Origin: a virus | Taxonomy: Duplodnaviria > Heunggongvirae > Uroviricota > Caudoviricetes | IMG/VR virus record: IMGVR_UViG_2547132415_000019 | Location: 1 to 18,947 of that record | DNA: 18,947 nt | Strand: one strand, 5' to 3' | In this document: positions 1,136-15,917 of the stretch, piece by piece | Numbering within the stretch: the stretch's first letter is position 1 | How the letters are laid out: every line of letters begins with the position of its first letter | The notes under the pieces: model-generated | The model's input: the letters and a program-made list of their open reading frames with translations, nothing else | Told to the model about the DNA's origin: nothing | Database searches by the model: none | Translations under genes and position numbers: made by a program

Positions 1136-2476
1136 TCATTGGAGCAAGAAAACTTTTAAGGTGTTTTTGAATATTCTAACAGGGTCTTCTACACCTGCAT
1201 TTCCTTTTAAAATATGATAATCACTTATTTCAGCCCATCTGTTTTTTTCATCGTTTTCAGAAGGAAGTAAAGGAGAACCTTCTGGCATATATTTATAAGT
1301 TATACCAAATAATGCATAATAGTAGATGTTGATGTTATATTGATCTGTCTGATATGGGAGTCTATTAACACCGAAGAAATTGATTATTAATTGTGCATCT
1401 ATTTTATCTTCTACGTAGTTAAGGGCCAGTTCACGACCAAACGAATAAAGAATTACTGCAAGGGTTCGATAACAGCAATAGCCTGGTATAAATTTATTGC
1501 TGATTTCATTTTGAGATAAAATTTGATAAATTTCTAGATATCTTGATAAGGTTTCAACTTCCCGTAGCGACAAGCCTTTTAGTTCGATAAATTTTTGAAC
1601 TATATGAATACTACTTTCTCCAATTTCTTTTAGTCTTTCAGACTCGTTACATAGCATTCTAAAATGAGAGTTCGAAGCCAAAATTTTATCGTAATTGTTT
1701 TCAGTGAAAGTCACTGGCAGGCTGTAAGTGAATTTTATAAATTTATCAAGATATCTTTCTGAGTCAACACCTGCACCGTAAATATGATTTATTGATGCTT
1801 TCAATTGTGAGATGTTAGCAACTAACAAGAAGTTAAGATTTTCAGTGTCAAAAACATGTTTTATATTTTCGATGATAGAGATGGCAAAGCTTGGTTTACA
1901 ACGGTCAAGTTCGTCAATGATAATTGTTATTTTATTTTCGCTAGTTAGTTCAGCAAGTACTTCCTTGAGAGCAAGCAAATGTTTCTTTGCTTCAATATGA
2001 TCATCAAGCAGTGCTTCTACAGTACCATCTATAGCTGAGTTAGCCGCATCTTTAATAGCATCTTCGAATTCATCCGCAATATCATCTGCATTTTGTTTTA
2101 AAATCCACCCAGCGCCAGCTTTGAGTACAGTTTTAAGTCCAAATCTCAATGCTGGTAATGCCTTTGATATTAATTCCTTCTTTTCACTCTCTGGATATAA
2201 TGCAACTATTGCAGCCATTATAGTAAGTATGGGAGCATCATTATGATCTTCAGTAAATGCATCAATATATACTACTTTATGCCCAGATTCATTTTTTTCA
2301 ATCAATGCCGCTAATTTTTTTGAAAATTCGGTTTTACCGGTACCCCAGTCCCCATCGATAACAATAGGGGATATTTTTAAGGGGGACTCGAGTAAGCTTA
2401 TTATTTTTTCAGCAATGATTTTTCTATTATACTCATCTCTGTTTTCAAAAGTCATATCATTATTCATATGAAGCAA
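1136..2476 (-). CDS. KAP-family P-loop NTPase (cargo gene)
   Basis: 446 aa. Walker A GDWGTGKTEF; Walker B-like hydrophobic stretch ITIIIDELDRC; an Ala/Gly/Leu-rich segment between them (ALPALRFGLKTVLKAGAGWIL) as in KAP NTPases. Markedly AT-rich by eye compared with the phage core. Confidence 0.8.
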   Translation of the reverse strand: MLHMNNDMTFENRDEYNRKIIAEKIISLLESPLKISPIVIDGDWGTGKTEFSKKLAALIEKNESGHKVVYIDAFTEDHNDAPILTIMAAIVALYPESEKKELISKALPALRFGLKTVLKAGAGWILKQNADDIADEFEDAIKDAANSAIDGTVEALLDDHIEAKKHLLALKEVLAELTSENKITIIIDELDRCKPSFAISIIENIKHVFDTENLNFLLVANISQLKASINHIYGAGVDSERYLDKFIKFTYSLPVTFTENNYDKILASNSHFRMLCNESERLKEIGESSIHIVQKFIELKGLSLREVETLSRYLEIYQILSQNEISNKFIPGYCCYRTLAVILYSFGRELALNYVEDKIDAQLIINFFGVNRLPYQTDQYNINIYYYALFGITYKYMPEGSPLLPSENDEKNRWAEISDYHILKGNAGVEDPVRIFKNTLKVFLLQ

Positions 2477-2478
2477 CC

Positions 2479-2664
2479 TTAGTTTTTAGAACATATTTTC
2501 TTTGACTTGCTTGGCGTTCCATCATTGCAAACGAACTTCCCATCAGATGTACAATGTGAAACTCCCCCTTTCTTACCAGAACATGGATAATTTTTTGCAA
2601 AACTTGTAATAGGTAAAGTAATAAATAAACAAATAAGTAGGATATGTATAGATTTATAAAACAT
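2479..2664 (-). CDS. Small Cys-rich secreted peptide (signal peptide + ~38 aa Lys/Cys-rich mature part); alternative start at 2682
   Basis: Minus-strand AAGGAAA sits about 6 nt upstream of the second ATG (2664). Encodes [23 protein letters not shown] then [38 protein letters not shown] (4 Cys). Its stop lies 3 nt from the KAP NTPase start, so it is probably co-transcribed. Confidence 0.5.
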
Positions 2665-2687
2665 ATTTATTTCCTTATACATTAATT

Positions 2688-3257
2688 TTAATAATTGACG
2701 ATCGCGCTTCTAATTTTTCCTATGATATCAATTTCATCTATTTTGCATTCAAAGGAACTGCTGCCGCCATCGACATTTAGACGACGTCCCGGCAGTCTTG
2801 TCAGATTCCTGATAGCAACCTCGCCATCAATATCAACGATCCACTTACCATCACGTACATCCTCATAATCCGAATCACAGATAAACTCTGATGCGCCATC
2901 GATCACAACAAAAGGTTTTTTTAGTTTTTCAGGCAAAAAGTTGTTGTCGAAAATGTAGTAACCATCAGGAAGTAGTTTTCCGCTTGATAAAATCTTCCTT
3001 TCGATCTCTTTTGTGTTTTCTTTTTGTGAACTTTCTTTTGAACCTTGCCCAGTAGTTAGCCACTCTAGCGACGTGCCGGTTTCAAGTGCACATTGGATTA
3101 CCCATTCTGCCGGGAATGAATCACGCATATAGCGCGTGGCTAAGGTGCTTTTAGAAATGCCCAAATGATCACACAAAGCTTGTCTTGTCTTGAAACCATA
3201 GGCTTCAACCATGCGCTCTATGGCCCCACGACCGCCTTTTTCCAAATTCATGGTCAC
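2688..3257 (-). CDS. cI: CI-type immunity repressor (phage 186 CI-like)
   Basis: 189 aa, transcribed divergently from the lytic operon. N-terminal region ([28 protein letters not shown]...[16 protein letters not shown]) resembles the 186 CI N-terminal domain as I recall it. GGAG about 6 nt upstream of the ATG on the minus strand. Confidence 0.8.
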
Positions 3258-3275
3258 TCCAAGTGAACTTTTACC

Positions 3276-3304
3276 TTGACGATTTCATGATGTGATCGTA
3301 TGTT
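3276..3304 (+). promoter_or_regulatory. Candidate early lytic promoter (pR-like): -35 TTGACG, 17-nt spacer, -10 TATGTT
   Basis: TTGACG at 3276-3281 and TATGTT at 3299-3304, in the cI/apl divergent intergenic region and oriented towards the apl-cII operon. Confidence 0.4.
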
Positions 3305-3332
3305 TGCAGTGTTCACATAATACAAACGATCA
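3293..3332. promoter_or_regulatory. Candidate repressor operator dyad overlapping the putative -10
   Basis: TGATCG-TAT-GTTTG (3293-3306) ... CAAAC-GATCA (3323-3332), an extended imperfect inverted repeat centred near 3312. Confidence 0.35.
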
Positions 3333-3376
3333 GTATTCATCCTGATTAATCATTGCTAAAAGAGGAATGTTGCATC

Positions 3377-3598
3377 ATGAGACCTAACATTTCAATCACT
3401 CTCATCACCCCCCACGTTACTATAGAAAGATATAGTGAACTCACTGGCTTATCTATCGACACAATTAACGACATGCTTGCAGATGGGCGTTTGCCTCGTC
3501 ATCGCCTACGTAAGGATAAAAAGCGTGAAAAAGTGATGATTAACATTGCTGCGATGACGATCGATGCCCTCTCTGATTGCAACGTGACTATCAACTAG
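3377..3598 (+). CDS. Apl/Cox-like small DNA-binding regulator/excisionase (alternative TTG start at 3353)
   Basis: First gene of the rightward early operon, about 73 aa, basic. AGAGGA lies about 10 nt upstream of the ATG at 3377. Assignment is mainly positional. Confidence 0.55.
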   Translation: MRPNISITLITPHVTIERYSELTGLSIDTINDMLADGRLPRHRLRKDKKREKVMINIAAMTIDALSDCNVTIN

Positions 3599-3630
3599 TT
3601 CCATTTTGAGACTTCACGGAGCAACTGACT

Positions 3631-4140
3631 ATGTTTGACTATCGCATTTCAAAACATCCCCATTTCAATGAAGCCTGCCGGGCCTTCGCCCTACGACACA
3701 ACATGGCGAAGCTGGCAGAGCGCGCAGGTATGAACGTTCAAACCTTGCGTAACAAGCTCAACCCGGAACAACCACACCAACTTACTGCGTCAGATATCTG
3801 GCAGTTAACCGATCTCACTGAAGACCCAACACTGGTTGATGGATTTCTGGCTCAGATTCACTGCCTGCCATGTATACCGGTAAATGAGGTGGCAAAAGAG
3901 AGACTGCCACATTACGTCATGAGTGCAACCGCAGAGATCGGGCGTGTTGCTGCAGGTGCGGTTTCTGGCGATGTAAAAACCAGTGCAGGCCGTCGCGATG
4001 CGATCAGCAGCATTAATTCTGTAACACGACTGATGGCGCTGGCGGCTGTTTCATTGCAGGCCCGTTTACAGGCTAATCCTGCGATGGCGAGTGCAGTTGA
4101 TACCGTGACTGGCCTCGGTGCTTCATTCGGTTTGCTGTGA
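3631..4140 (+). CDS. cII: CII-like transcriptional activator (phage 186 CII family)
   Basis: 169 aa. Strongly resembles 186 CII as recalled (MFD..SKHPH..EACRAFA.RHNMAKLAERAGMNVQTLRNKLNPEQPHQ...LTDLTED.TLVDGFLAQIHCLPC...NPAM.S.VDT..G.GASFGL). Same length and position as in 186. Confidence 0.8.
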   Translation: MFDYRISKHPHFNEACRAFALRHNMAKLAERAGMNVQTLRNKLNPEQPHQLTASDIWQLTDLTEDPTLVDGFLAQIHCLPCIPVNEVAKERLPHYVMSATAEIGRVAAGAVSGDVKTSAGRRDAISSINSVTRLMALAAVSLQARLQANPAMASAVDTVTGLGASFGLL

Positions 4141-4147
4141 GGTGCTT

Positions 4148-4444
4148 ATGCTGACGAAAGAACCATCATTTGCATCGCTGCTGGTAAAACAAAGCCCGGC
4201 AATGCACTACGGTCACGGCTGGATCATGGGTGAGGATGGTAAACGCTGGCATCCATGTCATTCACAAGATGAATTGCTGTCTGAATTGACCACGAGGAAA
4301 CGGAGAAAGTCAAAATGTATGCAGCGGAAAGTGAAATGGTTTATCAGTTTCGTTACAGAGGGGAGAGTTATTCAGTACCTGAAGATGATTTGCTCTGTTG
4401 CTATCCGTCATTGTCGGGCGATGGCAGTTACTTTTTCGCGTTAA
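4148..4444 (+). CDS. Hypothetical early protein; 3' portion overlaps the next ORF and may be non-coding or frameshifted
   Basis: GAGGTG 5 nt upstream of the ATG at 4148. The 5' half reads like protein (MLTKEPSFASLLVKQSPAMHYGHGWIMGEDGKRWHPCHSQDELLSELTT); the 3' half is Cys/Arg-rich and overlaps 4315-4539 in another frame. Confidence 0.35.
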   Translation: MLTKEPSFASLLVKQSPAMHYGHGWIMGEDGKRWHPCHSQDELLSELTTRKRRKSKCMQRKVKWFISFVTEGRVIQYLKMICSVAIRHCRAMAVTFSR

Positions 4445-4539
4445 AGGATGGGACGTTTTTACGGGGAGAGCAGGTTAAAGAGACGATACGAAAAAATGTA
4501 TCTCCTCTTGAGCGTTACCGTAAGAACAAAGAACGATAG
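4315..4539 (+). CDS. Hypothetical early protein (74 aa)
   Basis: GGAGAAAG about 7 nt upstream of the ATG; sequence composition looks protein-like. Confidence 0.5.
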   Translation: MYAAESEMVYQFRYRGESYSVPEDDLLCCYPSLSGDGSYFFALKDGTFLRGEQVKETIRKNVSPLERYRKNKER

Positions 4540-4561
4540 CTGCGTTTGGGGGATATGAAGT

Positions 4562-4903
4562 ATGGCAATTAATGGCGCTGCAGCAACTGTTCCATTAAGC
4601 CCCGGTGAACGCCTGAATGGACTTAATCACATTGCGGAGTTAAGGGCGAAAGTTTTTGGCCTGAATATTGAGTCAGAGCTTGAGCGGTTTATTAAAGATA
4701 TGCGTGATCCACGGGATATCAATAATGAACAAAATAAACGGGCACTGGCTGCCATATTCTTTATGGCAAAAATTCCAGCTGAACGTCATAGCATCAGCAT
4801 TAATGAGCTGACCACTGACGAAAAGCGGGAGCTGATTAAAGCAATGAATCATTTTCGTGCAGTGGTGAGCTTATTTCCCAGACGGCTAACCATGCCGAAT
4901 TAA
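4562..4903 (+). CDS. Hypothetical early protein (113 aa)
   Basis: Intact ORF in the early operon; G-rich stretch upstream of the ATG. Confidence 0.55.
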   Translation: MAINGAAATVPLSPGERLNGLNHIAELRAKVFGLNIESELERFIKDMRDPRDINNEQNKRALAAIFFMAKIPAERHSISINELTTDEKRELIKAMNHFRAVVSLFPRRLTMPN

Positions 4904-4970
4904 CCAACTAATGAAATTAATGGCGTAAACCCGCCGGGCATCCCTTTATCTAAATTCAGGAGAATTGATT

Positions 4971-5204
4971 ATGCGTAATATTGAAACCCTCACGACTAAA
5001 ACCGGACCGGATGACGCAGGGCTTAATATTTTACTGACAGAGGCTCGTCTGGAAGAACGCCGGGCAAGGGCTGAAGCAATGGCAGCTCGCCTTGATAGCC
5101 TGGCGTGTCATATCTCATCCCGTCAGCTAAACCACGTGGAAGCGGCAGAACTGCTGCGTGTGACTGCTGAAGCAATCCAGAACGAAGCGCAGGAGATCCA
5201 CTAA
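4971..5204 (+). CDS. Hypothetical early protein (about 77 aa, predicted helical/coiled)
   Basis: CAGGAGAA about 7 nt upstream of the ATG at 4971. Its stop overlaps the next start (TAATG). Confidence 0.55.
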   Translation: MRNIETLTTKTGPDDAGLNILLTEARLEERRARAEAMAARLDSLACHISSRQLNHVEAAELLRVTAEAIQNEAQEIH

Positions 5205-5431
5205 TGGCTGATGCAATGGATCTCGTACAGCAGCGCGTTGAAGAAGAACGCCAGCGCCATATCCGTGCTGCCCGTGCCAAAACGCCGGGCGTGTCCCGCG
5301 TGCTTTGCGTTGAGTGTGAAGCGCCAATTCCGCCAGCACGCCGCCGTGCCATTCCGGGTGTGCAGCTTTGCATTACCTGTCAGGAAATCGCAGAGCTGAA
5401 AGGCAAACATTACAACGGGGGTGCTGTATGA
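5204..5431 (+). CDS. TraR/DksA-type C4 zinc-finger protein (P2 orf82-like)
   Basis: 75 aa with C-x2-C ... C-x2-C (CVECEAPIPPARRRAIPGVQLCITCQ), typical of phage TraR-like proteins at this position. Confidence 0.8.
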   Translation: MADAMDLVQQRVEEERQRHIRAARAKTPGVSRVLCVECEAPIPPARRRAIPGVQLCITCQEIAELKGKHYNGGAV

Positions 5432-6285
5432 GCACCATCCTGAAATGGGCGGGAAATAAAACCGCCGTAATGTCCGAACTGAAAAAACATCTTCCTGCTG
5501 GTCCGCGACTAGTTGAACCTTTCGCGGGTTCCTGTGCTGTGATGATGGAGACGGATTATCCCTGCTATCTGGTTGCGGATATTAATCCTGATTTAATCAA
5601 CCTCTATAAAAAGGTTGCCGCTGATTGTGAATCGTTTATATCTCGCGCCAAAGTTTTATTTGAGATCGCAAACAGGGAGGTGGCTTATTACAACATAAGG
5701 CAGGAGTTTAATTACTCAACTGAAATTACTGATTTCATGAAAGCGGTATATTTCCTGTATCTCAATCGTCACGGTTACCGTGGGTTATGTCGCTATAACA
5801 AGAGCGGGCATTTCAACATTCCCTACGGTAATTATAAAAATCCGTATTTCCCTGAAAAAGAAATTCGCGCTTTTGCAGAAAAAGCCCAGCGAGCAACGTT
5901 TATCTGCGCCAGCTTTGATGAAACGCTGGCGATGTTGAAGGCGGGGGATGTGGTGTATTGCGATCCGCCTTATGACGGTACGTTTTCCGGCTATCACGCT
6001 GACGGCTTTACTGAAGATGACCAGTATCACCTGGCATCCGTTCTTGAACATCGGTCATCAGAAGGACATCCGGCCATTGTTTCTAACAGTGACACATCCC
6101 TGATCCGTTCGCTGTATCGCAATTTTACTCACCACTATATCAAGGTAAAACGCAGCATCGGCGCAGCAGCTGGTGAGAGTAAATCAGCAACAGAAATCAT
6201 TGCTGTTTCCGGACCGCGCTGCTGGGTGGGATTTGATTATTCGCGTGGCGTGGATAGTTCTGCCGTGTACGGAGTACGTGCATGA
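5428..6285 (+). CDS. dam: DNA adenine (N6) methyltransferase, Dam-like
   Basis: N-terminal SAM-binding region (LKWAGNK ... [10 protein letters not shown]) and catalytic DPPY motif (VYCDPPYDG). ATG at 5428 overlaps the upstream stop (ATGA) and its own stop overlaps the A start. Confidence 0.85.
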
Positions 6286-8696
6286 GCCATGCCGATATGA
6301 GCAACTGCTGCGGCTTTAACGAGGCTGCCGCATCGTTCTCATGGAACAGCCCGAAAAAGGCCATTAACCCTTATCTGGACCCGGCGGAAGTTGCGCCGGT
6401 TTCTGCGCTTTCAAACCTGATCACTCTGTACGCTGCCGATAACGAGCAGGAACAACTGCGCCGCGAGGCACTGAGTGATCAGGTCTGGGAGCGTTATTTC
6501 TTTAATGAATCCCGTGATCCTGTCCAACGCGAAATAGAGCAGGATAAGCTCATTAGCCGGGCAAAGTTGGCGCATGAGCAGCAGCGTTTTAACCCGGACA
6601 TGGTCATTCTGGCAGACGTCAGCGCCCAGCCCTCCCATATCAGCAAGCCGCTGATGCAACGTATTGAATACTTCAGCAGCCTGGGCAGGCCAAAGGCTTA
6701 TTCCCGCTATTTACGTGAGACGATTAAGCCATGTCTGGAACGACTGGAGCATGTACGCGACAGCCAGCTATCTGCATCTTTTCGTTTTATGGCAAGCCAT
6801 GTAGGGCTGGACGGCCTGCTGATTCTGCCTGAAATGAGTCAGGATCAGGTGAAACGCCTGTCTACCCTTGTCGCTGCGCATATGAGCATGTGCCTTGATG
6901 CAGCTTGTGGTGATTTGTATGCCACCGATGACGTTAAGCCAGAAGAAATCCGCAAGACATGGGAAAAGGTGGCAGCGGAAACCCTGCGTCTGGATGTCAT
7001 CCCGCCTGCGTTTGAGCAACTCCGCCGGAAAAGAAACCGCCGTAAACCCGTGCCCTATGAACTCATTCCGGGTTCGCTGGCGCGTATGTTGTGCGCCGAC
7101 TGGTGGTACCGGAAATTATGGAAAATGCGTTGCGAATGGCGGGAAGAGCAGTTGCGTGCTATCTGCCTGGTCAGCAAAAAAGCATCTCCCTATGTCAGCT
7201 ATGAAGCCGTGATGCATAAACGTGAGCAGCGCCGCAAGTCACTGGAGTTTTTCCGTTCTCATGAACTGGTGAACGAAGAGGGCGACACGCTGGATATGGA
7301 AGACGTGGTAAACGCCAGCAGCAGCAACCCGGCGCACCGCCGCAATGAGATGATGGCCTGTGTTAAAGGTCTGGAGCTTATCGCGGAAATGCGCGGTGAC
7401 TGCGCCGTTTTCTACACCATTACCTGTCCGTCACGTTTCCATTCCACGCTCAATAACGGCAGACCAAACCCAACTTGGACAAATGCGACGGTAAGACAAA
7501 GCAGCGATTATCTGGTCGGCATGTTTGCTGCATTTCGTAAGGCGATGCACAAAGCCGGGTTGCGCTGGTATGGCGTGCGGGTGGCTGAGCCGCATCATGA
7601 CGGTACAGTTCACTGGCACCTGTTGTGTTTCATGCGCAAAAAAGACCGCCGCGCCATTACTGCATTGTTGCGTAAGTTTGCCATCCGTGAAGACCGCGAG
7701 GAACTGGGTAATAACACTGGTCCACGCTTTAAATCTGAGCTGATAAACCCGCGCAAAGGAACGCCGACAAGCTACATCGCGAAATACATCAGTAAGAACA
7801 TTGACGGGCGTGGTCTGGCTGGCGAGATCAGCAAGGAAACGGGTAAATCCCTGCGTGATAACGCTGAATACGTTAATGCCTGGGCGTCTCTGCATCGTGT
7901 TCAGCAATTCCGCTTCTTTGGTATTCCGGGACGTCAGGCTTACCGTGAACTTCGCTTGCTGGCTGGTCAGGCGGCAAGGCAACAGGGTGACAAAAAAGCA
8001 GGTGCGCCGGTACTGGATAACCCGCGCCTTGATGCCATTCTGGCTGCTGCTGATGCTGGTTGTTTTGCCACCTACATCATGAAGCAGGGCGGCGTACTGG
8101 TTCCCCGCAAATATCACCTCATCAGAACCGCTTATGAAATCAACGAAGAGCCAACCGCCTATGGCGATCACGGTATTCGTATTTATGGCATCTGGTCACC
8201 CATTGCAGAGGGCAAGATCTGCACTCATGCAGTGAAGTGGAAAATGGTTCGTAAGGCCGTTGACGTTCAGGAGGCGGCAGCCGACCAGGGCGCTTGCGCC
8301 CCTTGGACTCGTGGCAATAACTGTCCCCTTGCTGAAAATTTGAACCAACAAGGGAAAGACAAATCAGCTGATGGGGATACCAGAACGGACATTACCCACA
8401 TGGATGACAAGGAGTTGCACGATTACCTGCACAGTATGAACAAAAAAGAGCGCCGGGAACTGGCTGCAAGGTTACGCCTGGTGAAACCGAAACGGCGTAG
8501 AGACTACAAACAGCGAATTACAGACCATCAACGACAGCAGCTCGTCTATGAACTGAAGTCCAGAGGATTTGATGGCAGCGAGAAAGAGGTCGATTTACTC
8601 CTTCGCGGCGGCAGTATTCCGTCAGGAGCAGGCCTGCGTGTCTTCTATCGGAACCAGCGTTTGCAGGAAGATGATAAGTGGCGGAACCTGTATTAA
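6282..8696 (+). CDS. A: Replication initiation endonuclease (P2 gpA-like rolling-circle protein)
   Basis: 804 aa. [12 protein letters not shown]-type tyrosine motif and HWHLL His motif as in P2 A-family proteins; position after the early operon. Confidence 0.85.
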
Positions 8697-8790
8697 TTAC
8701 GCGGGTTAACAATTCGTGCTCTTAATAATACCAGGCATATCAGGCTGATGAACGTAAAAAAACGTTTTACATCAGTAAGATTATCATATA

Positions 8791-8806
8791 CTGTAAATAT
8801 AAACAG
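8791..8806. promoter_or_regulatory. LexA (SOS) box CTGTAAATATAAACAG overlapping a sigma70-like promoter
   Basis: Exact CTGT-N8-ACAG with an AT-rich core. Upstream TTTACA (8766-8771) and TATACT (8787-8792) could be -35/-10. A second degenerate half-site (ACAG at 8818-8821) follows. Confidence 0.7.
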
Positions 8807-8849
8807 TGGTTATCTATACAGTATTGTTTGCGGTGTCATAGGAGGAAAG

Positions 8850-9038
8850 ATGCAGGACTATTTTTTGGAGTCTTTGAAGCTCCAGCGCATTGATTTTTTT
8901 CTTAAGCTTGTAGCGGCTAGTGAGTGTAGTGATGAAGAGAAGGGGCTGGCCCTGCAGTGGGTTTCTGAATTGACTGATGAACTCATGGCAAAAATCAGAA
9001 GCCACGAATACAACCGCTCAATGGATGTCATCAGCTGA
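8850..9038 (+). CDS. Small hypothetical protein, first gene of the SOS-controlled module (possible Tum-like N-terminal part)
   Basis: GGAGG 4-5 nt upstream of the ATG at 8850; 62 aa. The ORF-track start at 8748 would read through the promoter and LexA box, so it is unlikely. Confidence 0.5.
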   Translation: MQDYFLESLKLQRIDFFLKLVAASECSDEEKGLALQWVSELTDELMAKIRSHEYNRSMDVIS

Positions 9039-9048
9039 GGTGACTTTT

Positions 9049-9282
9049 ATGCGCATTGAAATAATGATCGATAAAGAGCAGAAGATTAGCCAGTCTACCC
9101 TGGACGCTCTGGAGTCCGAGCTTTACCGCAACCTGCAACCCATCTATCCCAAGACCGCTATCCGCATCCGTAAAGGGTCGGCAAACGGCGTTGAGCTGAG
9201 TGGCTTAAAGCTTGATGAAGACAAAAAGCGGGTGATGGAAATTATGCAACAGGTTTGGGAAGACGACAGCTGGCTGCACTAA
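9049..9282 (+). CDS. DinI-family protein (phage Tum/MsgA-like, SOS-associated)
   Basis: 77 aa starting MRIEIMIDKEQKISQSTLDALESELYRNLQ ... EDDSWL, matching the DinI fold pattern (MRIEV...L...EL..R......WE..D.W). GAGGTG upstream of the ATG. Confidence 0.8.
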   Translation: MRIEIMIDKEQKISQSTLDALESELYRNLQPIYPKTAIRIRKGSANGVELSGLKLDEDKKRVMEIMQQVWEDDSWLH

Positions 9283-9400
9283 GGAACGTTCCTGATGTAA
9301 GAACTTGAATCTGACGTCAGCAAGGTTGAACAACGAGAGTAGCGAGGCGTTAGCCATGGGTAAAAAAGACAGTAATCACCAGATTATTTATCGGGGCTAG

Positions 9401-9616
9401 GTGCTGGAACGTTTAACCCTTGGCGACTGGGTCTTCTTTCAACGCCCAAAGGAGTGTGGCGGAGGTTTTTGGTTGGGCCGCATCTATGAAGACTGCTTCT
9501 GGCTTGAGCTGGAATTCCCCGTTTCGCTATATGACGGCCTGGGGTTTTTGATGGAAGTCACTAGGGTAGAGCAGAGAAGTGATGAGGTTGACGCGAATTA
9601 TCCCCTGTTTGATTAA
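9401..9616 (+). CDS. Hypothetical small protein (71 aa, GTG start)
   Basis: ORF only; no recognisable motif. Confidence 0.35.
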   Translation: MLERLTLGDWVFFQRPKECGGGFWLGRIYEDCFWLELEFPVSLYDGLGFLMEVTRVEQRSDEVDANYPLFD

Positions 9617-9664
9617 AAATGTATTAGCTTATAATGGAATACTATTTTTGCAGGTGGGGGCGCA

Positions 9665-10276
9665 ATGGATTTAGTCTTTAAAGTTCTGGCTTCGTTGGGT
9701 GGGGTGTCTTTTGTTGCATCTGGCATATTTGTTTGGATCGGGAAAGTTTATTTAGAAAGATATAAGTCGCGGCTAAACAAAGATATTGCTGAATTTCAAT
9801 CACAACTGAGTGCAACTAATGAAAGAATAAAGGCTAAGTTAGACAATTCTGTTTATGTAACGAAAGCGTATTTTGATAAGGAGTTATCAGCATATAGTCT
9901 CATTTGGAATTCGATGTTTGAAACCAGAGAAAGCGTGCTTAAGCTGAGGCCTGCGCTGGATCATGTTGACCCCAACGAACCATTTGAAGAGAGAAAATTT
10001 AGAAGGTTGAAAGTTTTTTCTGATGCATTTAACACTTTTGTTACAAGTGTTGAATCTAACAAACCGTTCATCTCACCAGAGGTTTATATAATCTTGGACC
10101 GTTTCCGGAAGGAATGCCTTTCAGAGTCAATATCGTTTAAGCATAGCGATCCAGAATTTGACGGGCAAAATTATTGGAAAGAGGCGGAGTTGAACCATAC
10201 AACCATCATCAAGCTTTTTGATGAGACGTGTGATGCAATTCGAGACAGGATGCACACATTAACTGTGGTTACGTAG
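9665..10276 (+). CDS. Single-pass membrane protein with N-terminal TM helix and coiled-coil-like region (cargo; function unknown)
   Basis: 203 aa. Residues about 5-27 are hydrophobic (VLASLGGVSFVASGIFVWIG). AT-rich. G-rich stretch upstream of the ATG. Confidence 0.65.
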   Translation: MDLVFKVLASLGGVSFVASGIFVWIGKVYLERYKSRLNKDIAEFQSQLSATNERIKAKLDNSVYVTKAYFDKELSAYSLIWNSMFETRESVLKLRPALDHVDPNEPFEERKFRRLKVFSDAFNTFVTSVESNKPFISPEVYIILDRFRKECLSESISFKHSDPEFDGQNYWKEAELNHTTIIKLFDETCDAIRDRMHTLTVVT

Positions 10277-10368
10277 GTTTCCAAAAAGTCTCGATGCCCG
10301 CTTTGGAGATTGTGCATGTCTATGCCGCATGAATCCGCATGATCGTTTGAGGATCGTTTTAGCTGAGG

Positions 10369-10392
10369 CCCGCCAGGAGTGGCGGGATTTTG
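10369..10392 (+). terminator. Candidate intrinsic terminator downstream of the membrane-protein gene
   Basis: CCCGCC (10369-10374) / GGCGGG (10381-10386) stem with 6-nt loop, followed by ATTTTG. Confidence 0.35.
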
Positions 10393-10585
10393 CTTATGTC
10401 ATGCAGGCGCATGAAAACCGCTACATAAAGCGGGCAGGCGTGGCGGGGATACGAGCGCGCGCTAACTCTTGGCTTTGTTTCATAATCAAAAATGTGATCA
10501 TTGAGATTATTCTGAATTTTATGTTTGTCTATGAAATATCATTTCGCTTAACATTGTTTGAGTTAGGACTACATGAGAATAAAGA

Positions 10586-11161
10586 ATGCTTTTACCCGTA
10601 AGTGTTACATCGTGTGGCTTGTATCACCCCTACTGGCATTTGGGAGAGCGCAACCCTCATAGCGATGAACTATCAAGGCAGATGATGGATTTTAAGGATG
10701 AAAATAATCGTAATCATCAAAGGGCTATTAACCGTTTTTCTCGATTAGCTATAGATAAGGTTGGGCGGTTAGTAATCAGAGGTGGCGGTGGGCGTTTTGT
10801 TGAGTCTCCTTTTTCGATAGCAGTCGTCCCATCTCACACTGAAGGCAGAATTTCACCGGCTTTGATTGAGGTCGCCGAGCGAATCGTAAATGTTCACCGT
10901 CGGGGCATTGTTGATTGCTGTTTGGAAAGAACACGCACTGTTCCTAGCGCACATCGTGAAGGAGGAGATCGCTCAATTACTGGTCACATGTCTAGTATCA
11001 GAGTTAGGGGTGGTAACCTCATGGGGCGAAATGTGTTACTACTAGATGATGTTAAAACAACAGGCGGTAGTTTGTCTGCGTGTTTTTATTTACTGGAGTC
11101 TGCAGGAGCTGGAGTTATAATGCCATTAGCTCTGCTAGAAACTGCAAACTATGAGGAGTAG
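10586..11161 (+). CDS. Phosphoribosyltransferase (PRTase)-domain protein, ComF-like (start uncertain)
   Basis: C-terminal type I PRTase PRPP-binding signature NVLLLDDVKTTGGSL. 191 aa. Stop overlaps the DprA-like start. AT-rich. Confidence 0.75.
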   Translation: MLLPVSVTSCGLYHPYWHLGERNPHSDELSRQMMDFKDENNRNHQRAINRFSRLAIDKVGRLVIRGGGGRFVESPFSIAVVPSHTEGRISPALIEVAERIVNVHRRGIVDCCLERTRTVPSAHREGGDRSITGHMSSIRVRGGNLMGRNVLLLDDVKTTGGSLSACFYLLESAGAGVIMPLALLETANYEE

Positions 11162-12125
11162 CAAAGTGCACTCAGAAGAATTAAAAAATACACTTGGATT
11201 AGCTATTCAAATCGGGAAGCTAGCATCTGATCAAAGTGTATTGAAATTCTTTGAGCTTATTGATTTTGATGTTATTCGTGATATACGCGACTTAACTGAG
11301 ATGGTTAATAGCCACGGGTTTCTAAAAGATAAAATATCTGAGACTGATTTTCTAATAGCGAATGCTGAATTGGAGAACCACCATGTTAATGGTGTGGAGC
11401 TAATACCATATGGGTCTGAATTCTATCCTCTTAGTTTAGCGTTTACTCCTAATCCACCATCAATTCTCTACATAAAAGGGGATAAAAGTATACTAAAAGA
11501 ATTGCCGGGTGTCGCAATTGTAGGATCCCGTGATACTTCCCCTGCAGGGGAAGAAATAACGAGGCGAATCACTAATCAGATAGTGTCTGCTGGGTATATT
11601 GTTGTAAGTGGGTTAGCAATAGGCACTGATGCGAATGCTCATAAGGCAACGTTACAAGCAAAAGGAAAAACCATTGCTGTCTTGGCGCATGGTCTTGAGG
11701 AGGCTAAGCCGAAGCAAAACAGTCGACTTGCTCAAGAGATTCTGGATAAAGGTGGTGCATGGATTTCTGAGTATCCTATGGGTCGACCGGCCCAGAAACA
11801 ATCATTTGTACAAAGAAATCGGATACAAGTTGGATTATCTGCAGGTTCAATTTTAATCGAGGCTGCGTTAAATAGCGGAACGATAACTCAAGCTGAGTTT
11901 GCAAATAAGGCGAAAAGACCAGTGTTTGCGGTTGTACCTCACCTACCTAATAATCCGCTTAATCTTAATTGTGAGGGAACAGTTGATTTAGTTAAGAGCA
12001 ACATGGCTAGAGCGTTAAAAACAAAACGGGATTATGATGATGTGATTATGATCATAAATGAGTCTCGGGAGTATTTGTTAGAGCTAAAATGGCCAGGGAA
12101 ACAGAGTACATTAGACTTGATTTAA
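11151..12125 (+). CDS. DprA/Smf-like (SLOG superfamily) Rossmann-fold protein (alternative GTG start at 11166)
   Basis: 324 aa. GVAIVGSRDTSPAGEE ... VVSGLAIGTDANAHKATL matches the DprA motif pattern (G.R......G ... SGLA.GID..AH). ATG overlaps the PRTase stop by 11 nt; GAGGAG precedes the GTG at 11166. Confidence 0.8.
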   Translation: MRSSKVHSEELKNTLGLAIQIGKLASDQSVLKFFELIDFDVIRDIRDLTEMVNSHGFLKDKISETDFLIANAELENHHVNGVELIPYGSEFYPLSLAFTPNPPSILYIKGDKSILKELPGVAIVGSRDTSPAGEEITRRITNQIVSAGYIVVSGLAIGTDANAHKATLQAKGKTIAVLAHGLEEAKPKQNSRLAQEILDKGGAWISEYPMGRPAQKQSFVQRNRIQVGLSAGSILIEAALNSGTITQAEFANKAKRPVFAVVPHLPNNPLNLNCEGTVDLVKSNMARALKTKRDYDDVIMIINESREYLLELKWPGKQSTLDLI

Positions 12126-12146
12126 AGCGCCTCTTTTAGAGGCACT
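12126..12146. terminator. Candidate bidirectional terminator between the convergent DprA-like and Q genes
   Basis: GCCTCT (12129-12134) / AGAGGC (12138-12143) hairpin flanked by T/A runs on both sides. Short stem. Confidence 0.35.
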
Positions 12147-12149
12147 TTG

Positions 12150-13178
12150 CTAAATTTGATATCTCTCGAATTTTATAATTTCTTCACCGCTCCAATGATT
12201 AAATTCTTTCATTCTTTTTTGTAATGGTAATAATTCATTTTTCACAAATACCTTACTAGCTTTTTCTACATCCCCAAATCCCCCAACATTATTAGGCATT
12301 ATCCCCATCATCTGTGGCGGAACGCGATGTGCTGCCATCATGTCATCCCGGCTCACGTTCTTGATATTTAGAAACTCATCCTTCGCCGCAACTTCTGACA
12401 AAGGGATGATCTGAAGGCCGTCCTTTTTGCCGTTAGGCGAGTACATAAACAGGTTGCGGAAGTTACCCGGACCTTTGGCACTTTTCATTGCATTGCGGAG
12501 GTTGTTCACGTCCTCCTGGTTCTGCGCAGCATCGGTCATGTACATGATGAAGCCTGCATGACTACCGTTAATGTAATACTTGCGGCGGAACAGCGTGGCG
12601 GACTCATTGAGCAGGGCGGACGGAATGGCAGAAAGATAGCCGGGCAGGCCGTAGATCTCCTGGTTAATGTCCGGTTCCATCAGATGAAAAATGCTGCCTT
12701 TCGTGAACTGATACGGCTGGGTTGTCATACCGTATTGCACAAACCAGTAGGTATCCAGGTCTAACCCGCGTCGGGTGTATTTTGCCAGAGCAGGCTCAAG
12801 GGCGATAACTTCACCGAAGCGGTTCGTGCGTTTCTCCAGGTAGGCGTTACCAAATACCAGATAGTCCTGCACAAAACGTGAAAAAGCCTGCTGGCTGAGC
12901 AGCGGGTGAGGGATGTAGGTACTGGTCAGAATGTTGCATTTTACTGCAATCGGTGAGCTGTGATGCACGGCAGCGCGGAAGGTTCGTGCCAGTCCGTCAA
13001 AGCTGACGGGCGGCTCATACCAGCGGTCCATCTGTACGCATTCCACATAGTCCAGCAGTTCACGGCGGTCCAGAACAGGAACGGGATCGCCAAAGCTGAA
13101 TGCTTCGGCTGAAGTCTGGCTTTTATGCTTGAGCTGATTCGTCGCCGCAGCGCGGTTTTTCTTACTCTTTCCCATCAA
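12150..13178 (-). CDS. Q: Portal protein (P2 gpQ-like)
   Basis: 342 aa. Position and orientation, with its start overlapping the stop of the upstream terminase gene, are as in P2; N-terminal region resembles gpQ as recalled. Confidence 0.85.
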   Translation of the reverse strand: MMGKSKKNRAAATNQLKHKSQTSAEAFSFGDPVPVLDRRELLDYVECVQMDRWYEPPVSFDGLARTFRAAVHHSSPIAVKCNILTSTYIPHPLLSQQAFSRFVQDYLVFGNAYLEKRTNRFGEVIALEPALAKYTRRGLDLDTYWFVQYGMTTQPYQFTKGSIFHLMEPDINQEIYGLPGYLSAIPSALLNESATLFRRKYYINGSHAGFIMYMTDAAQNQEDVNNLRNAMKSAKGPGNFRNLFMYSPNGKKDGLQIIPLSEVAAKDEFLNIKNVSRDDMMAAHRVPPQMMGIMPNNVGGFGDVEKASKVFVKNELLPLQKRMKEFNHWSGEEIIKFERYQI

Positions 13179-14941
13179 AAAATCTCCACAATATTGCTGG
13201 TATTGGCGGATTCGCCCTGCAGCGGTTCGTTAAACAGTGCGTGCATCGTTGCCCAGGCCAGATCGGCGTGGCTGGCTTCTTCGCTGCGGCTGGCTTCATA
13301 GGTCGGGCGGTTGCCGCTGGCGGTGGTGGCGCGACGGATTGCCATGAATGACTGCGCAATGTCGGTGTGCCCGGCGTCAAACTCCAGACGGCGGTGGCTG
13401 ATAATGTCGTAGGCCTTGAGTACCAGGGCGTTTTTAACATTGGGGTTGTAGACAAACTCCCGGACGGCAGGAAAGAACGCTTTCACGTTCTCATAAACCC
13501 CGTGACCAACGCCGGTTGAGTCGATACCGATATAGGTCACGTTGTACTGTTCGGTGAGTTTTTTGATGGCGTCAGCCTGGGCGCGGAAGTCCATCCCGCG
13601 CCACTGGTGACGCTCAAGAATGCGGAACTTACCACCCGGCACGGCTGGCGGAGCCACCACCACGCATCCGGCACTGTCGCCGTTCTGCGTACCTTTTGCC
13701 GGGTCATAACCGATCCACACTTCGCGCCAGCCAAACGGGCGCAGGGCCAGTGCATGAAAGTCGGTCCAGACTTCCCAGCTGTCCACCATGCACGCCTGCA
13801 GTTCGCTGAGCGGGAACACGGACGCGAGATCGTCCACGAACTCGCACATCAGCAGGTTCTGGTATTCGTCCGGGCTGTACTCCATGCGTAGCTGGTCGAG
13901 GTCGAACAGGTTACAGCCGCCGCGCACCGCATCTTCCACGGTGACTATCTGGCGGTATTGCCCGTCTGCGCACAGCAGGCCGGGGGCCAAATTGCTGTGG
14001 GACAGGTCGATGTCCACCTTGTCAGCTTTGTTGCGTCCACGGTTGAACAGCGCACCGGACCAGAACGGATAAGCACTGTGGGTCAGGCTGGATGGCGTGG
14101 AAAAATAGGTTTGTCGCCATTTTTTGTGAATAGCCATCCCGGAAGCCACTTTGCGCAGCTCCTGGAATTTCGGTATCCAGAAATATTCATCCAGATACAG
14201 GTTGCCGTGATAACTCTGGGCCGTGCGGGCATTGGTGCCGAGGAAGTAAAGCGTGGCTCCGTTAGGAAGCACCATCGGATCGCCTTTTAGCTCCACCTCG
14301 ACTTCTTTGGCGAAGTCGATGATGTATTGTTTAAAGACGTGGGCCTGAGCCTTACTGGCAGAAAGGAAAATCTGGTTACGTCCGGTAAGCAGGGCGTCAA
14401 TCAGGGCTTCACGGGCAAAATAGAAGGTCGCGCCGATCTGGCGTGACTTCAGCAGGTTGCGGATGCGGTTGGTTTTTCCGGCTTCCCACCAGTGGCGCTG
14501 GTAGTTGAACATGGAGGAATGGAAGATTTCTTCCAGCTTCTCAATCTGCTCATCGGTGAAAACATTCTTTTCCGGCTGACGGTGTGGGCCTTTATTGCGG
14601 TTGGCGACGTTAGGGTTTAAGTCGGCTTCGTTGCCGCCATTGTTAAACTTGCCGATCCGCGCGTGGCGCTCAGACTGGCGCGCCAGCAGGTCAATCTCTT
14701 TGAAATCTTTCCCTTCTTTGTGCTCCTTCATAATGAGCTGGCAGTAGCGTGCGGCGGTGGTGAGCTGCATCTGATCCAGCGGCCCATAGTCACCCCACTT
14801 GTCGCGTTTTTTCCAGCTGTGAACGGTTGCAACTTTCTCGCCCAGCATTTCAGCAATGCGGGCTACGCGGTATCCCTGAAAGTACAGCAGCATGGCCTGC
14901 CGACGGGGATCGAGATCTGCGGGTGTCAGTGTGGTGTTCAT
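13175..14941 (-). CDS. P: Terminase large (ATPase) subunit (P2 gpP-like)
   Basis: 588 aa, same size class as P2 P; divergent from O; overlaps the Q start (ATGA). Confidence 0.85.
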   Translation of the reverse strand: MNTTLTPADLDPRRQAMLLYFQGYRVARIAEMLGEKVATVHSWKKRDKWGDYGPLDQMQLTTAARYCQLIMKEHKEGKDFKEIDLLARQSERHARIGKFNNGGNEADLNPNVANRNKGPHRQPEKNVFTDEQIEKLEEIFHSSMFNYQRHWWEAGKTNRIRNLLKSRQIGATFYFAREALIDALLTGRNQIFLSASKAQAHVFKQYIIDFAKEVEVELKGDPMVLPNGATLYFLGTNARTAQSYHGNLYLDEYFWIPKFQELRKVASGMAIHKKWRQTYFSTPSSLTHSAYPFWSGALFNRGRNKADKVDIDLSHSNLAPGLLCADGQYRQIVTVEDAVRGGCNLFDLDQLRMEYSPDEYQNLLMCEFVDDLASVFPLSELQACMVDSWEVWTDFHALALRPFGWREVWIGYDPAKGTQNGDSAGCVVVAPPAVPGGKFRILERHQWRGMDFRAQADAIKKLTEQYNVTYIGIDSTGVGHGVYENVKAFFPAVREFVYNPNVKNALVLKAYDIISHRRLEFDAGHTDIAQSFMAIRRATTASGNRPTYEASRSEEASHADLAWATMHALFNEPLQGESANTSNIVEIF

Positions 14942-14987
14942 GGCACAAACCTACAGCCTTGAATGACGGCTTTCCCCGCCTGCGGTT

Positions 14988-15005
14988 TGTGTGGTTGTCG
15001 GTACA
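14988..15005. promoter_or_regulatory. TGT-N12-ACA dyad in the P/O divergent region, candidate Ogr/B-type late-activator binding site
   Basis: TGTGTGGTTGTCGGTACA. This is the element found upstream of P2 late promoters; it lies about 80-95 bp upstream of the O start. Confidence 0.5.
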
Positions 15006-15083
15006 AATACCGCGCATTGTTTCACTGCCCCCATCACCGCAACCATAAGGCTCCAGTAAGTTTTTTCTAACGGAGCACGGCTC

Positions 15084-15917
15084 ATGACAGTGAAAGCAAA
15101 GCGTTTTCGCATCGGGGTGGAAGGTGCCACCACCGACGGACGCGAAATCCAGCGTGAATGGCTGGAACAGATGGCAGCCAGCTACAACCCGGCGGTGTAT
15201 ACCGCGCTGATTAACCTTGAGCACATCAAGTCTTATCTGCCGGACAGCACCTTTAACCGCTACGGCAAGGTGACGGCGCTGTTTGCTGAAGAAATCATGG
15301 AAGGTCCGCTGGCAGGCAAGATGGCGCTGTATGCCGACGTTGAGCCAACGGAGTCCCTGGTGGAGCTGGTGAAAAAAGGCCAGAAATTATTCACCTCTAT
15401 GGAAGTCAGCCCGAAGTTCGCTGATACGGGCAAAGCCTACCTGGTCGGCCTGGCAGCCACTGATGACCCTGCCAGTCTGGGCACTGAAATGCTGACATTC
15501 AGCGCCAGTGCAGCCCATAACCCACTGGCAAACCGCAAGCAGAATCCTGCCAATCTCTTTACCGCTGCAGAGGAAACGGTGATCGAACTGGAAGAAATCC
15601 AGGACGACAAACCGTCCCTGTTTGCCCGTGTCACGGCGCTGTTTACCAAAAAAGAGCAGTCCGATGACGCCCGGTTCTCTGATGTGCATAAGGCCGTGGA
15701 GCTGGTCGCCACTGAGCAGCAGAACCTGAGCGCACGCACCGAAAAATCCCTGTCTGAGCAGGAAGAACGCCTGTCTGAGCTGGAGACTGCCCTGCAGGCA
15801 CAGCAAACCGCCTTTAACGAACTGGTGGACAAGCTGAGTCATGAAGACTGCCGCCAGGACTACCGCCAGCGTGCAACAGGCGGTAACGCCCCCGCTGACA
15901 CTCTGACCAATTGCTGA
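15084..15917 (+). CDS. O: Capsid scaffolding protein (P2 gpO-like)
   Basis: 277 aa; first gene of the rightward late operon; GGAG 8 nt upstream of the ATG. Confidence 0.8.
   Translation: MTVKAKRFRIGVEGATTDGREIQREWLEQMAASYNPAVYTALINLEHIKSYLPDSTFNRYGKVTALFAEEIMEGPLAGKMALYADVEPTESLVELVKKGQKLFTSMEVSPKFADTGKAYLVGLAATDDPASLGTEMLTFSASAAHNPLANRKQNPANLFTAAEETVIELEEIQDDKPSLFARVTALFTKKEQSDDARFSDVHKAVELVATEQQNLSARTEKSLSEQEERLSELETALQAQQTAFNELVDKLSHEDCRQDYRQRATGGNAPADTLTNC

Follow-up and report, generated by a model that had tools for sequence, protein, structure and literature searches.

The window analyzed here is a stretch of 18,947 nucleotides, taken at its full length from IMG/VR virus record IMGVR_UViG_2547132415_000019 (Caudoviricetes). 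It represents a prophage of the P2 family, 186-like in type, with a 186-type CI, CII (CP76) and Dam encoded upstream of the interval under study. That interval, 8697-12149, extends exactly from the stop of gpA (8696) to the stop of gpQ (12150). Its left anchor is the conserved replication endonuclease gpA (6282-8696, plus strand; Pfam Phage_GPA, 1.4e-127) and its right anchor is the conserved portal protein gpQ (12150-13178, minus strand; Pfam Phage_portal, 4.6e-17). The opposite strand carries the genes for the gpQ portal and the terminase gpP, then the capsid genes. Between the two anchors lie five parts: an SOS operon made of orf62 and a DinI-like gene, a small gene relic (hyp71), an insertion that codes for a membrane protein of 203 residues (TM203), a conserved block that contains the packaging site cos, and a pair of genes for a phosphoribosyltransferase (PRTase) and a DprA-family protein. 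The original prediction had described the interval as a mosaic of at least three cargo modules located where P2 carries tin/old. Our comparison with related prophages leads to a different picture. It is highly probable that the interval is a cos-proximal accessory region, in which backbone elements are combined with a pair of distinct cargo slots that lie to either side of the packaging site and reassort at cos.

The cos island and the two slots beside it

For the comparison, 160 related loci were fetched with the portal protein as the query, and gpA, orf62, DinI, the cos motif and gpQ were located in each. In 120 of them A, one cos motif and Q were found in that order, and counts out of 120 below refer to this set. 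When 126 unique sequence contexts were anchored on the cos motif, conservation rose from approximately 0.35 to 0.8-1.0 exactly over 10312-10464 and dropped at once on both sides. This block of 152 bp, the cos island, spans -125 to +27 relative to the predicted cohesive end and has a GC content of 0.57. It is present in 1,384 of 5,426 complete Escherichia coli genomes (the A/Q flanks in 1,311), and this genome set underlies the genome counts given below. Based on alignment with the annotated cohesive ends of phages 186 and P2, the 19-nt cohesive end of the window is predicted to be GGCGTGGCGGGGATACGAG (10437-10455, plus strand). By hand count it is identical to the 186 cos (GGCGTGGCGGGGAAAGCAT) at 15 of 19 positions and to P2 cosL (GGCGAGGCGGGGAAAGCAC) at 14 of 19. 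The flanking sequences GCATnAAAACC...CATAAAGnGGGCA and GCGCGC are conserved between the window and both phages. The site resembles the cos of P2, 186 and P4 in having a G-rich cohesive end of 19 nt that starts with GGCG(T/A)GGCGGGGA, in its conserved flanks and in its position between the right-end genes and Q, but differs from them in the last six bases, which are TACGAG instead of AAGCAT or AAGCAC. The same 19-mer was found in 92 of the 120 loci, and the cos motif occurs once per locus in nearly all of the relatives.

The island has an internal organization of its own. Four direct GCATG(A) repeats (at 10314, 10327, 10337 and 10409) and one inverted CATGC (10400) are arranged on the plus strand over 10314-10413, which makes five GCATG motifs where 0.22 would be expected (Poisson p = 3.7e-6). 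Each of the direct repeats is kept in at least 110 of 125 unique islands. They are located at -123, -110, -100 and -28 relative to the cohesive end and are candidate terminase recognition repeats. A GC-rich hairpin (CCCGCCA-GGAG-TGGCGGG, 10369-10386, plus strand), followed by ATTTTG, has a stem that is invariant and a loop that is variable across genera. It scored as terminator-like in our scan and may serve as the terminator of rightward transcription or as a packaging element. Conservation around the cohesive end is strongly one-sided, reaching 125 bp towards gpA and about 8 bp towards gpQ, which suggests that the recognition elements reside at the right end of the packaged genome.

The GC-rich piece had been taken for the remnant of an open reading frame (ORF). 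Judged by the alignment with the 186 and P2 sites, this piece is the cos site and not a decayed gene. The frame in question, 10329-10601, was considered as a gene remnant and rejected; it has no Pfam or PADLOC match and its 3' half lies in non-conserved sequence. The island was also rejected as a known RNA, as a search of Rfam at E ≤ 1 returned nothing within 8500-12400. Annotation pipelines as well as naive readers can take a cos island for a gene remnant.

The cargo of the interval falls into two slots with cos between them, and in the packaged chromosome each slot occupies a different physical end. The slot between the last gene of the SOS operon and cos belongs to the right end and the slot between cos and the Q stop to the left end. 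With a slot counted as filled when it exceeds 450 bp, the left-end slot, measured from cos to the Q stop, is filled in 112 of the 120 loci (median 1,716 bp). The right-end slot, measured up to cos from the last gene of the SOS operon, is filled in 77; when empty, it spans 207-208 bp. Both slots are filled in 70 loci. In P2 and 186 the left-end slot is empty, with 167 and 176 bp, respectively, between cos and Q/W. The tin/old genes of P2 are on the A side of cos. The comparison with tin/old made in the original prediction is therefore apt for the part of the interval to the left of cos, but not for the PRTase/DprA pair, which is located across cos, at the left end of the packaged genome.

Probable reassortment at the packaging site

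The close relatives of the window match it on one side of cos or on the other. E. coli UMNF18 and one of the related loci (L141) share 8000-10463 with the window at 99.6-100% identity (99.6% for UMNF18) and then diverge; the last ~500 nt of gpA are 100% identical to L141. NCTC9041, E2348/69, TKEC21-59 and the related loci L089 and L090 share 10312-12900 at 97.6-99.4% identity and differ upstream. The only sequence common to the UMNF18-type and the NCTC9041-type relatives, as detected by blastn, is the stretch of ~150 bp at 10312-10463. Within the island the window is the same as its left-hand relatives (L141 and UMNF18) up to +24, and the right-hand relatives (L089, NCTC9041, L090 and E2348/69) differ from the window at -6 or -17 and are identical to it beyond. 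The exchange therefore falls within 10431-10461. By these alignments the window reads as a recombinant whose right end is L141/UMNF18-like and whose left end is L089/NCTC9041-like. The whole interval was not found in any complete E. coli genome; the best of them covers 81% of it, and the exact pairing of the cassettes is absent from the set.

How the cassettes arrived can be read from the extent of the shared sequence. Tracts of ~100% identity cover ~8200-10461 in the comparison with L141 and ~10456-15100 in the comparison with L089. These tracts end at cos from either side. The cassettes thus probably came with flanking backbone through recombination of related phages. The proposal of successive independent acquisitions is correct in that the parts differ in history. 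It is probably not correct as a series of de novo insertions, since the nearly identical tracts include backbone.

The same pattern was observed across the family. Among 135 loci, 80 left-flank and 110 right-flank sequence types are joined in 127 distinct flank combinations. The alignment with the relatives shows variable gene content within conserved flanks rather than full synteny, which agrees with the view that the interval holds variable cargo between the conserved A and Q. To quantify linkage, we compared island identity between pairs of loci. Pairs with the same left flank and a different right flank have an island identity of 0.993 (178 pairs), and pairs with the same right flank and a different left flank 0.871 (28 pairs), with a background of 0.785. 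At the level of flank types, the medians are 0.992 (16 types) and 0.880 (11 types), respectively (Mann-Whitney p = 4e-5). The partners of the two cassettes in complete E. coli genomes are diverse as well. TM203 is accompanied by retron St85, SIR2/ParA, AIPR, DUF4145 or P-loop NTPase cargo, and the allele of the PRTase/DprA pair seen in the window by DUF2971, KAP NTPase or small ORFs.

In the simplest reading, which draws on established phage genetics, cutting by terminase at cos makes the vegetative phage map linear. The two slots, adjacent in the prophage, would thereby come to lie at the two extremes of the packaged chromosome. A single exchange anywhere in the backbone between two related phages would then reassort the slots, and the apparent junction would fall exactly at cos. 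One may go further and regard defence cargo on both sides of cos as a built-in shuffling device, with slots that are only ~150 bp apart in the prophage yet genetically unlinked, and with new pairings created at each exchange. The data fit this idea, with 127 combinations among 135 loci and with linkage of the cos island to the A side alone. We put it forward tentatively, as a serious possibility that falls somewhat short of being the probable one.

A physically targeted event could also have produced the junctions. In this explanation, recombination or illegitimate insertion is directed to cos itself, either by the double-strand breaks that terminase makes or by exchange in the most conserved ~30 bp. 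The exchange point of the window, 10431-10461, does coincide with the most conserved part of the island. The island identity of pairs with the same right and different left flanks is slightly above the background, which fits some exchange inside the island, and the identical tracts are short (~2.3 kb and ~4.6 kb), which would require further crossovers near cos on each side. Both models predict a break of linkage at cos, however, and reassortment of the two ends needs no special mechanism. We therefore consider targeting to cos a rather unlikely, though still substantial, alternative to reassortment of chromosome ends.

Several observations pull against the picture of two slots that reassort at cos. 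Cleavage at 10437-10455 is deduced from homology, and 4-5 of the 19 positions of the presumed cohesive end differ from 186 and P2. The loci that enter the linkage test are phylogenetically non-independent. Unsupervised segmentation, run with the four-letter Jensen-Shannon divergence at 99% and with a change-point test of GC at a permutation p < 0.01, recovered nothing beyond the outer borders (8660, 12143 and 12272) and gave no significant internal split.

Backbone and cargo of the interval

The first part of the interval is controlled by LexA. A LexA box, TACTGTAAATATAAACAGTG (8789-8808, plus strand), with CTGT-N8-ACAG at 8791-8806, is located in an AT-rich promoter region upstream of orf62. 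The pattern CTGT-N8-ACAG has two matches in the whole window as compared with 0.20 expected; the other perfect match lies at 1087-1102, between the genes for a KAP NTPase and the integrase. In an alignment with phage 186, the box upstream of orf62 falls on the region where the p95/LexA site is annotated, and in 112 of 115 loci a CTG-N10-CAG box precedes the orf62 homologue by at most 120 nt. The first gene of the operon, orf62 (8850-9038, plus strand, 62 aa; phrog_698, 5.9e-38), has a homologue in 110 of the 120 loci, and DinI is found in 81. The DinI-like protein (9049-9282, plus strand; Pfam DinI, 2e-24) shares 43% identity with the C-terminal half of 186 Tum, residues 71-145 (E = 2e-25). 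No similarity was detected between orf62 and the N-terminal half of 186 Tum; orf62 is a candidate for the antirepressor part of the operon.

The operon resembles p95-tum of phage 186. It lies directly downstream of gene A, its LexA box overlaps the promoter, a 186-type CI is encoded in the same prophage, and its DinI-like product is the homologue of the Tum C-terminal half. It differs in that Tum is a single protein of 146 aa in 186 and two ORFs are found in the window, and in that hyp71 and TM203 stand in the place of the downstream 186 gene orf97. The LexA-controlled operon is conserved backbone and not cargo, because orf62 and its LexA box are nearly always kept, the third-codon-position GC content (GC3) is backbone-like, and the arrangement matches 186 p95-tum. 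The LexA box and the DinI-like ORF had been recognized correctly in the original prediction. Their assignment to a cargo module was not correct, since ~90% of the loci carry the operon. Repressed by LexA, the operon would probably bring about SOS induction of the prophage, the role that p95-tum has in 186.

The right-end slot begins with hyp71 (9356-9616, plus strand), the relic of a gene of ~86 aa. Its open part (9401-9616, 71 aa) matches phrog_2100 (1.4e-28) over profile positions 17-84. An in-frame amber TAG is present at 9398-9400 in both the window and L141, at a position that homologues read through as YRG-E/K/Q-.... Several homologues of hyp71 are disrupted as well, among them those in L024 and L038, and decay of the gene appears to be under way in several lineages. 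In relatives from Enterobacter, Citrobacter and Pantoea, the cos island starts within ~10 bp of the hyp71 stop, and hyp71 has long resided in the right slot. Relative to such loci, where hyp71 abuts cos, TM203 constitutes an AT-rich single-gene insertion of ~690 bp between hyp71 and the cos island (cassette 9617-10305, coding sequence 9665-10276, plus strand; phrog_26391, 203 aa). The original prediction had placed the small hypothetical gene and the membrane protein in one module. The two differ in composition and distribution, and one has been inserted between the other and cos.

TM203 has one N-terminal hydrophobic helix at residues 7-25 and none elsewhere (Kyte-Doolittle 19-residue maximum 2.0). 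The AlphaFold2 model (predicted local distance difference test score 81) is all-helical, with a membrane anchor and a predicted four-helix bundle. The protein is catalogued as system 39, "1 TM", with 103 occurrences, in Table S5B of Rousset 2022 (PMC9122126). Its family is much larger than one would expect from the close homologues: a profile search returned 919 clusters when grouped at 50% identity, of which 385 scored E ≤ 1e-10, and almost all of the 919 are 190-225 aa in length. Ten distant relatives scanned with Pfam and PADLOC gave nothing meaningful. The genomic context of two relatives, one beside a DUF4411 gene and the other near smpB, was uninformative. Our guess is that TM203 acts at the inner membrane, either in superinfection exclusion or in abortive infection. 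A Foldseek search of the model against the Protein Data Bank (PDB) found only generic four-helix bundles (the Tar ligand-binding domain and a FAT domain) at E ≥ 8.7e-3 and a TM-score of ~0.45, and TM203 has neither a PADLOC match nor an informative homologue. The family may nevertheless represent an unrecognised single-gene, membrane-anchored exclusion or defence protein. It is large and uncharacterised, and a reasonable candidate for experimental testing.

The left-end slot carries the pair that had been read as PRTase and DprA, and this reading stands. The first gene (10586-11161, plus strand) codes for a ShosT-like PRTase, the predicted toxin (PADLOC ShosT, 3.6e-14), which carries the phosphoribosyl pyrophosphate (PRPP)-loop motif VLLLDDVKTTGGS. 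The second (11151-12125, plus strand) codes for a ShosA-like DprA-family protein, the predicted antitoxin (Pfam DNA_processg_A, PF02481, 1.4e-60; PADLOC ShosA PDLC03961, 2.8e-70). Its true start is probably the GTG at 11166, behind the Shine-Dalgarno sequence GAGGAG at 11154-11159; the phrog_4299 match starts at residue 7 of the DprA protein. The two genes are co-oriented, and depending on the start they are separated by 4 nt or overlap by 11 nt. By the PADLOC models the pair belongs to the ShosTA family, as a subtype different from that of avian pathogenic E. coli (APEC) O1. It shares with the APEC O1 system the adjacent and tightly coupled genes for a PRPP-loop PRTase and a DprA-like protein as well as the location in a P2-like hotspot. 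The difference is that the APEC O1 system is on the A side of a P2-type cos and the pair in the window on the Q side.

Codon comparison shows that both genes are under purifying selection. Relative to a 76%-identical copy in E. coli STEC1589, a Shiga toxin-producing E. coli (STEC), the PRTase gene shows 76 synonymous and 38 non-synonymous codon differences, and the DprA gene 125 and 54, respectively. The signal in the PRTase gene includes the first 33 codons, and for this reason the start at ATG 10586 is supported. The frame from this ATG is missed by the RefSeq and PHROG gene calls. In RefSeq, DprA is annotated and the upstream PRTase is not in three E. coli loci (L001 3087-3935, L002 4148-5305 and L003 2113-3205), and the STEC1589 annotation has a shorter PRTase version of 160 aa. 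The cassette is found in 34 complete E. coli genomes, in 23 of them at ≥95% identity and in 11 at ~76%.

Published work on APEC O1 describes ShosT as a PRTase toxin that depends on PRPP and disturbs purine metabolism, ShosA as an antitoxin of DprA-like type that binds single-stranded DNA (ssDNA) and RecA, and the system as an abortive-infection defence against T7 (PMC11961720, PMC12961424). A DprA and PRTase pair from the P2 hotspot is also reported to protect against T7 and lambda in the account of that hotspot (PMC9122126). By homology, the PRTase of the window would act as a toxin that requires PRPP and upsets nucleotide metabolism, and the DprA-like protein as an antitoxin that binds ssDNA and RecA; loss of the antitoxin upon phage infection would cause abortive infection. 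Set against this assignment, the Pfam Pribosyltran match of the PRTase is 1.2e-3, with 18.6 bits as compared with a gathering cut-off of 26.3. Searched against the PDB, the PRTase found no chain with E < 0.03 and no match to the solved APEC O1 ShosT, the best hits being generic PRTases that align over the PRPP loop only. The published mechanism would thus transfer to the window only at the level of family homology. The DprA protein matches the solved ShosA (9vzo, 1.7e-29) no more closely than an ordinary DprA (2.2e-31).

The cassette borders on a variable end of gpQ. A short hairpin, GCCTCT-TTT-AGAGGC (12129-12143), lies between the DprA stop and the Q stop, at the position of tQ/tW of P2/186; in the P2 and 186 records a terminator is annotated just downstream of Q/W. 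The hairpin was read from the sequence and failed the T-run criterion of our scan. The last ~25 codons of gpQ (12150 to ~12270) are AT-rich, with a GC content of 0.26 over 12143-12271, and homology to UMNF18 and L141 picks up again only at 12192/12198, inside gpQ. The C-terminal tails of gpQ differ in nearly every locus while the pattern of helical and hydrophobic residues is kept. It seems that the tail of the portal protein travels with the left-slot cassette.

The composition of these parts bears on the idea of three independently acquired modules that replace P2 tin/old and are separated by terminators and a decayed GC-rich ORF. The backbone has a GC content of 0.548 and a GC3 of 0.63. When the interval was divided into five segments, with bounds taken from homology or annotation, composition was heterogeneous and not uniform (chi-square p = 2.8e-6). 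The GC3 values of orf62 (0.54), DinI (0.64) and hyp71 (0.57) could not be distinguished from the backbone. TM203 (0.39, p = 2e-12), the PRTase (0.35) and DprA (0.31) all deviate, with p values that range from 1e-12 to 1e-32. Foreign composition is confined to TM203, ShosT and ShosA, and the AT-rich character noted from about 9650 onward is thus borne out. The several shifts that had been seen by eye are real as heterogeneity and as deviation in GC3, but they are visible only in GC3 and with segment bounds set by homology or annotation, and not as internal change points in the segmentation described above. Terminator-like hairpins do not separate the parts, as 4 were found in comparison with 3.0 +/- 1.7 in shuffled sequences. 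Promoter and terminator counts in the combined scan were at or below chance, and the notion of terminator-separated modules was dropped in view of the hairpin counts.

What the three-module explanation has in its favor is that composition does shift and that the membrane-protein part and the PRTase/DprA part differ in distribution and partners; to this extent, the claim of multiple cargo modules was right. Its other components do not hold. The first module is backbone, with the DinI-type operon and its LexA box in about nine tenths of the loci; the second combines hyp71 and TM203, which are unlike each other; and the GC-rich divider is a cos site that recurs in well over a thousand E. coli genomes. 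The hairpins are at chance level, and the PRTase/DprA pair lies across cos and not in the tin/old position. We regard the three-module explanation as improbable, and retain the reading of an accessory region with one slot on each side of cos.

Less probable still, and in our judgement very improbable, is that TM203 and the PRTase/DprA pair form one functional unit of three genes that straddles cos and is inherited together. This possibility was suggested by 11 STEC genomes, in which a stand-alone remnant, located outside any prophage and beside an integrase fragment, contains in the same order a TM203-like gene, a degenerate cos (GGCGTGTCAGGGATAAGAG) and a ShosTA-like pair (L169, E. coli STEC1589, 2313-4857, and L170, 2015C-3121, 3428-5972; hypothetical genes also adjoin it). 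The order could hint at linkage over free assortment, and in this respect it adds to the points raised earlier against independent slots. It also means that the TM203/ShosTA pairing arose or persisted elsewhere too. The two sides of the remnant are unequal in divergence, however, with a switch at cos. The TM203-like gene is 90% identical to that of the window and decayed, and the ShosTA-like pair is 76% identical and intact, its divergence being mostly synonymous. An intact toxin-antitoxin pair beside decayed neighbours fits the retention of an addictive or useful module. At ≥95% identity, TM203 (41 genomes) and the ShosTA allele of the window (23 genomes) never co-occur in the 5,426 E. coli genomes, and each has many other partners. 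Among the 120 loci, ShosTA occurs without TM203 (L089 and L090) and TM203 without ShosTA (L141). Published ShosTA systems, moreover, work as two genes (PMC11961720). The single unit was rejected on distribution and divergence.

That the whole interval is an ancestral core whose composition differs through gene-specific constraints is practically untenable: all of its genes are on the same strand and tightly packed, and the SOS operon and cos are indeed core, but the flanks around cos are of the many types counted above, flank similarity is at background directly outside the island, and TM203, hyp71 and ShosTA occur in 52, 41 and 34 E. coli genomes, respectively, as compared with 1,384 for the island.

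Known hotspots and neighbouring cargo

The region between gpA and gpQ of the P2 family has been described as a defence hotspot adjacent to cos that often holds more than one system (Rousset et al. 2022, PMC9122126), and the P2 gpA-gpQ ("tin/old") region had been noted earlier (Odegrip 2006, as cited in PMC9122126). The cargo list of the hotspot includes both DprA+PRTase and the "1 TM" protein. The interval in the window is bounded by gpA and gpQ, has cos inside and is variable in gene content while its flanks are conserved. It thus has the same flanking genes, the same adjacency to cos and the same kind of diverse anti-phage cassettes as the published hotspot. The role of its cargo in anti-phage defence is suggested by homology, through the PADLOC matches to ShosT and ShosA. 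The difference is one of anatomy, as the hotspot is treated as a single unit in the cited sections and the window resolves into a core SOS operon and two slots separated by cos.

The left-end slot has a precedent too. For phage phiRSY1, extra ORFs between cosL and the Q homologue were reported (PMC5694545, citing Dodd & Egan 1996 and Nakayama 1999), and in the passage concerned this position was proposed as a place at which foreign genes can be acquired while other functions are left undisturbed. The PRTase/DprA pair of the window occupies exactly that position. The earlier cases are Ralstonia and Pseudomonas phages with other cargo, and in the lineage of the window the slot is filled in nearly all loci.

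What we describe is therefore known biology rediscovered, in which the original prediction contained one misreading (cos as an ORF remnant) and one mis-assignment (the SOS operon as cargo). The locus illustrates in textbook fashion the carriage and exchange of anti-phage systems by temperate P2-family phages, and in that sense it offers little that is new. What is added is an exact anatomy of the interval, together with a demonstration in numbers that the two slots assort independently of each other and are joined at cos. If the gpA-gpQ hotspot is split at cos, guilt-by-association searches should obtain cleaner boundaries of systems, and genes that face each other across cos should not be combined as a single candidate.

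The remaining features of the window lie upstream of gpA. They include the integrase (1-1053, minus strand), the 186-type CI repressor (2688-3257), CII/CP76 (3631-4140) and a Dam-type N6-adenine methyltransferase (5368-6285). The last matches the PADLOC orphan methyltransferase model (7.9e-110) with no restriction gene adjoining, and GC content dips to 0.39 near 5551-5850 in its region. A second AT-rich cargo region (GC ~0.30-0.37) is located between the integrase and the CI repressor. It comprises a 67-aa ORF without a match (2479-2682) and, next to it, a gene on the minus strand (1136-2476) for a KAP-family P-loop NTPase of 446 aa, whose match in PADLOC is the candidate defence protein PDC-S20 (1.1e-171).

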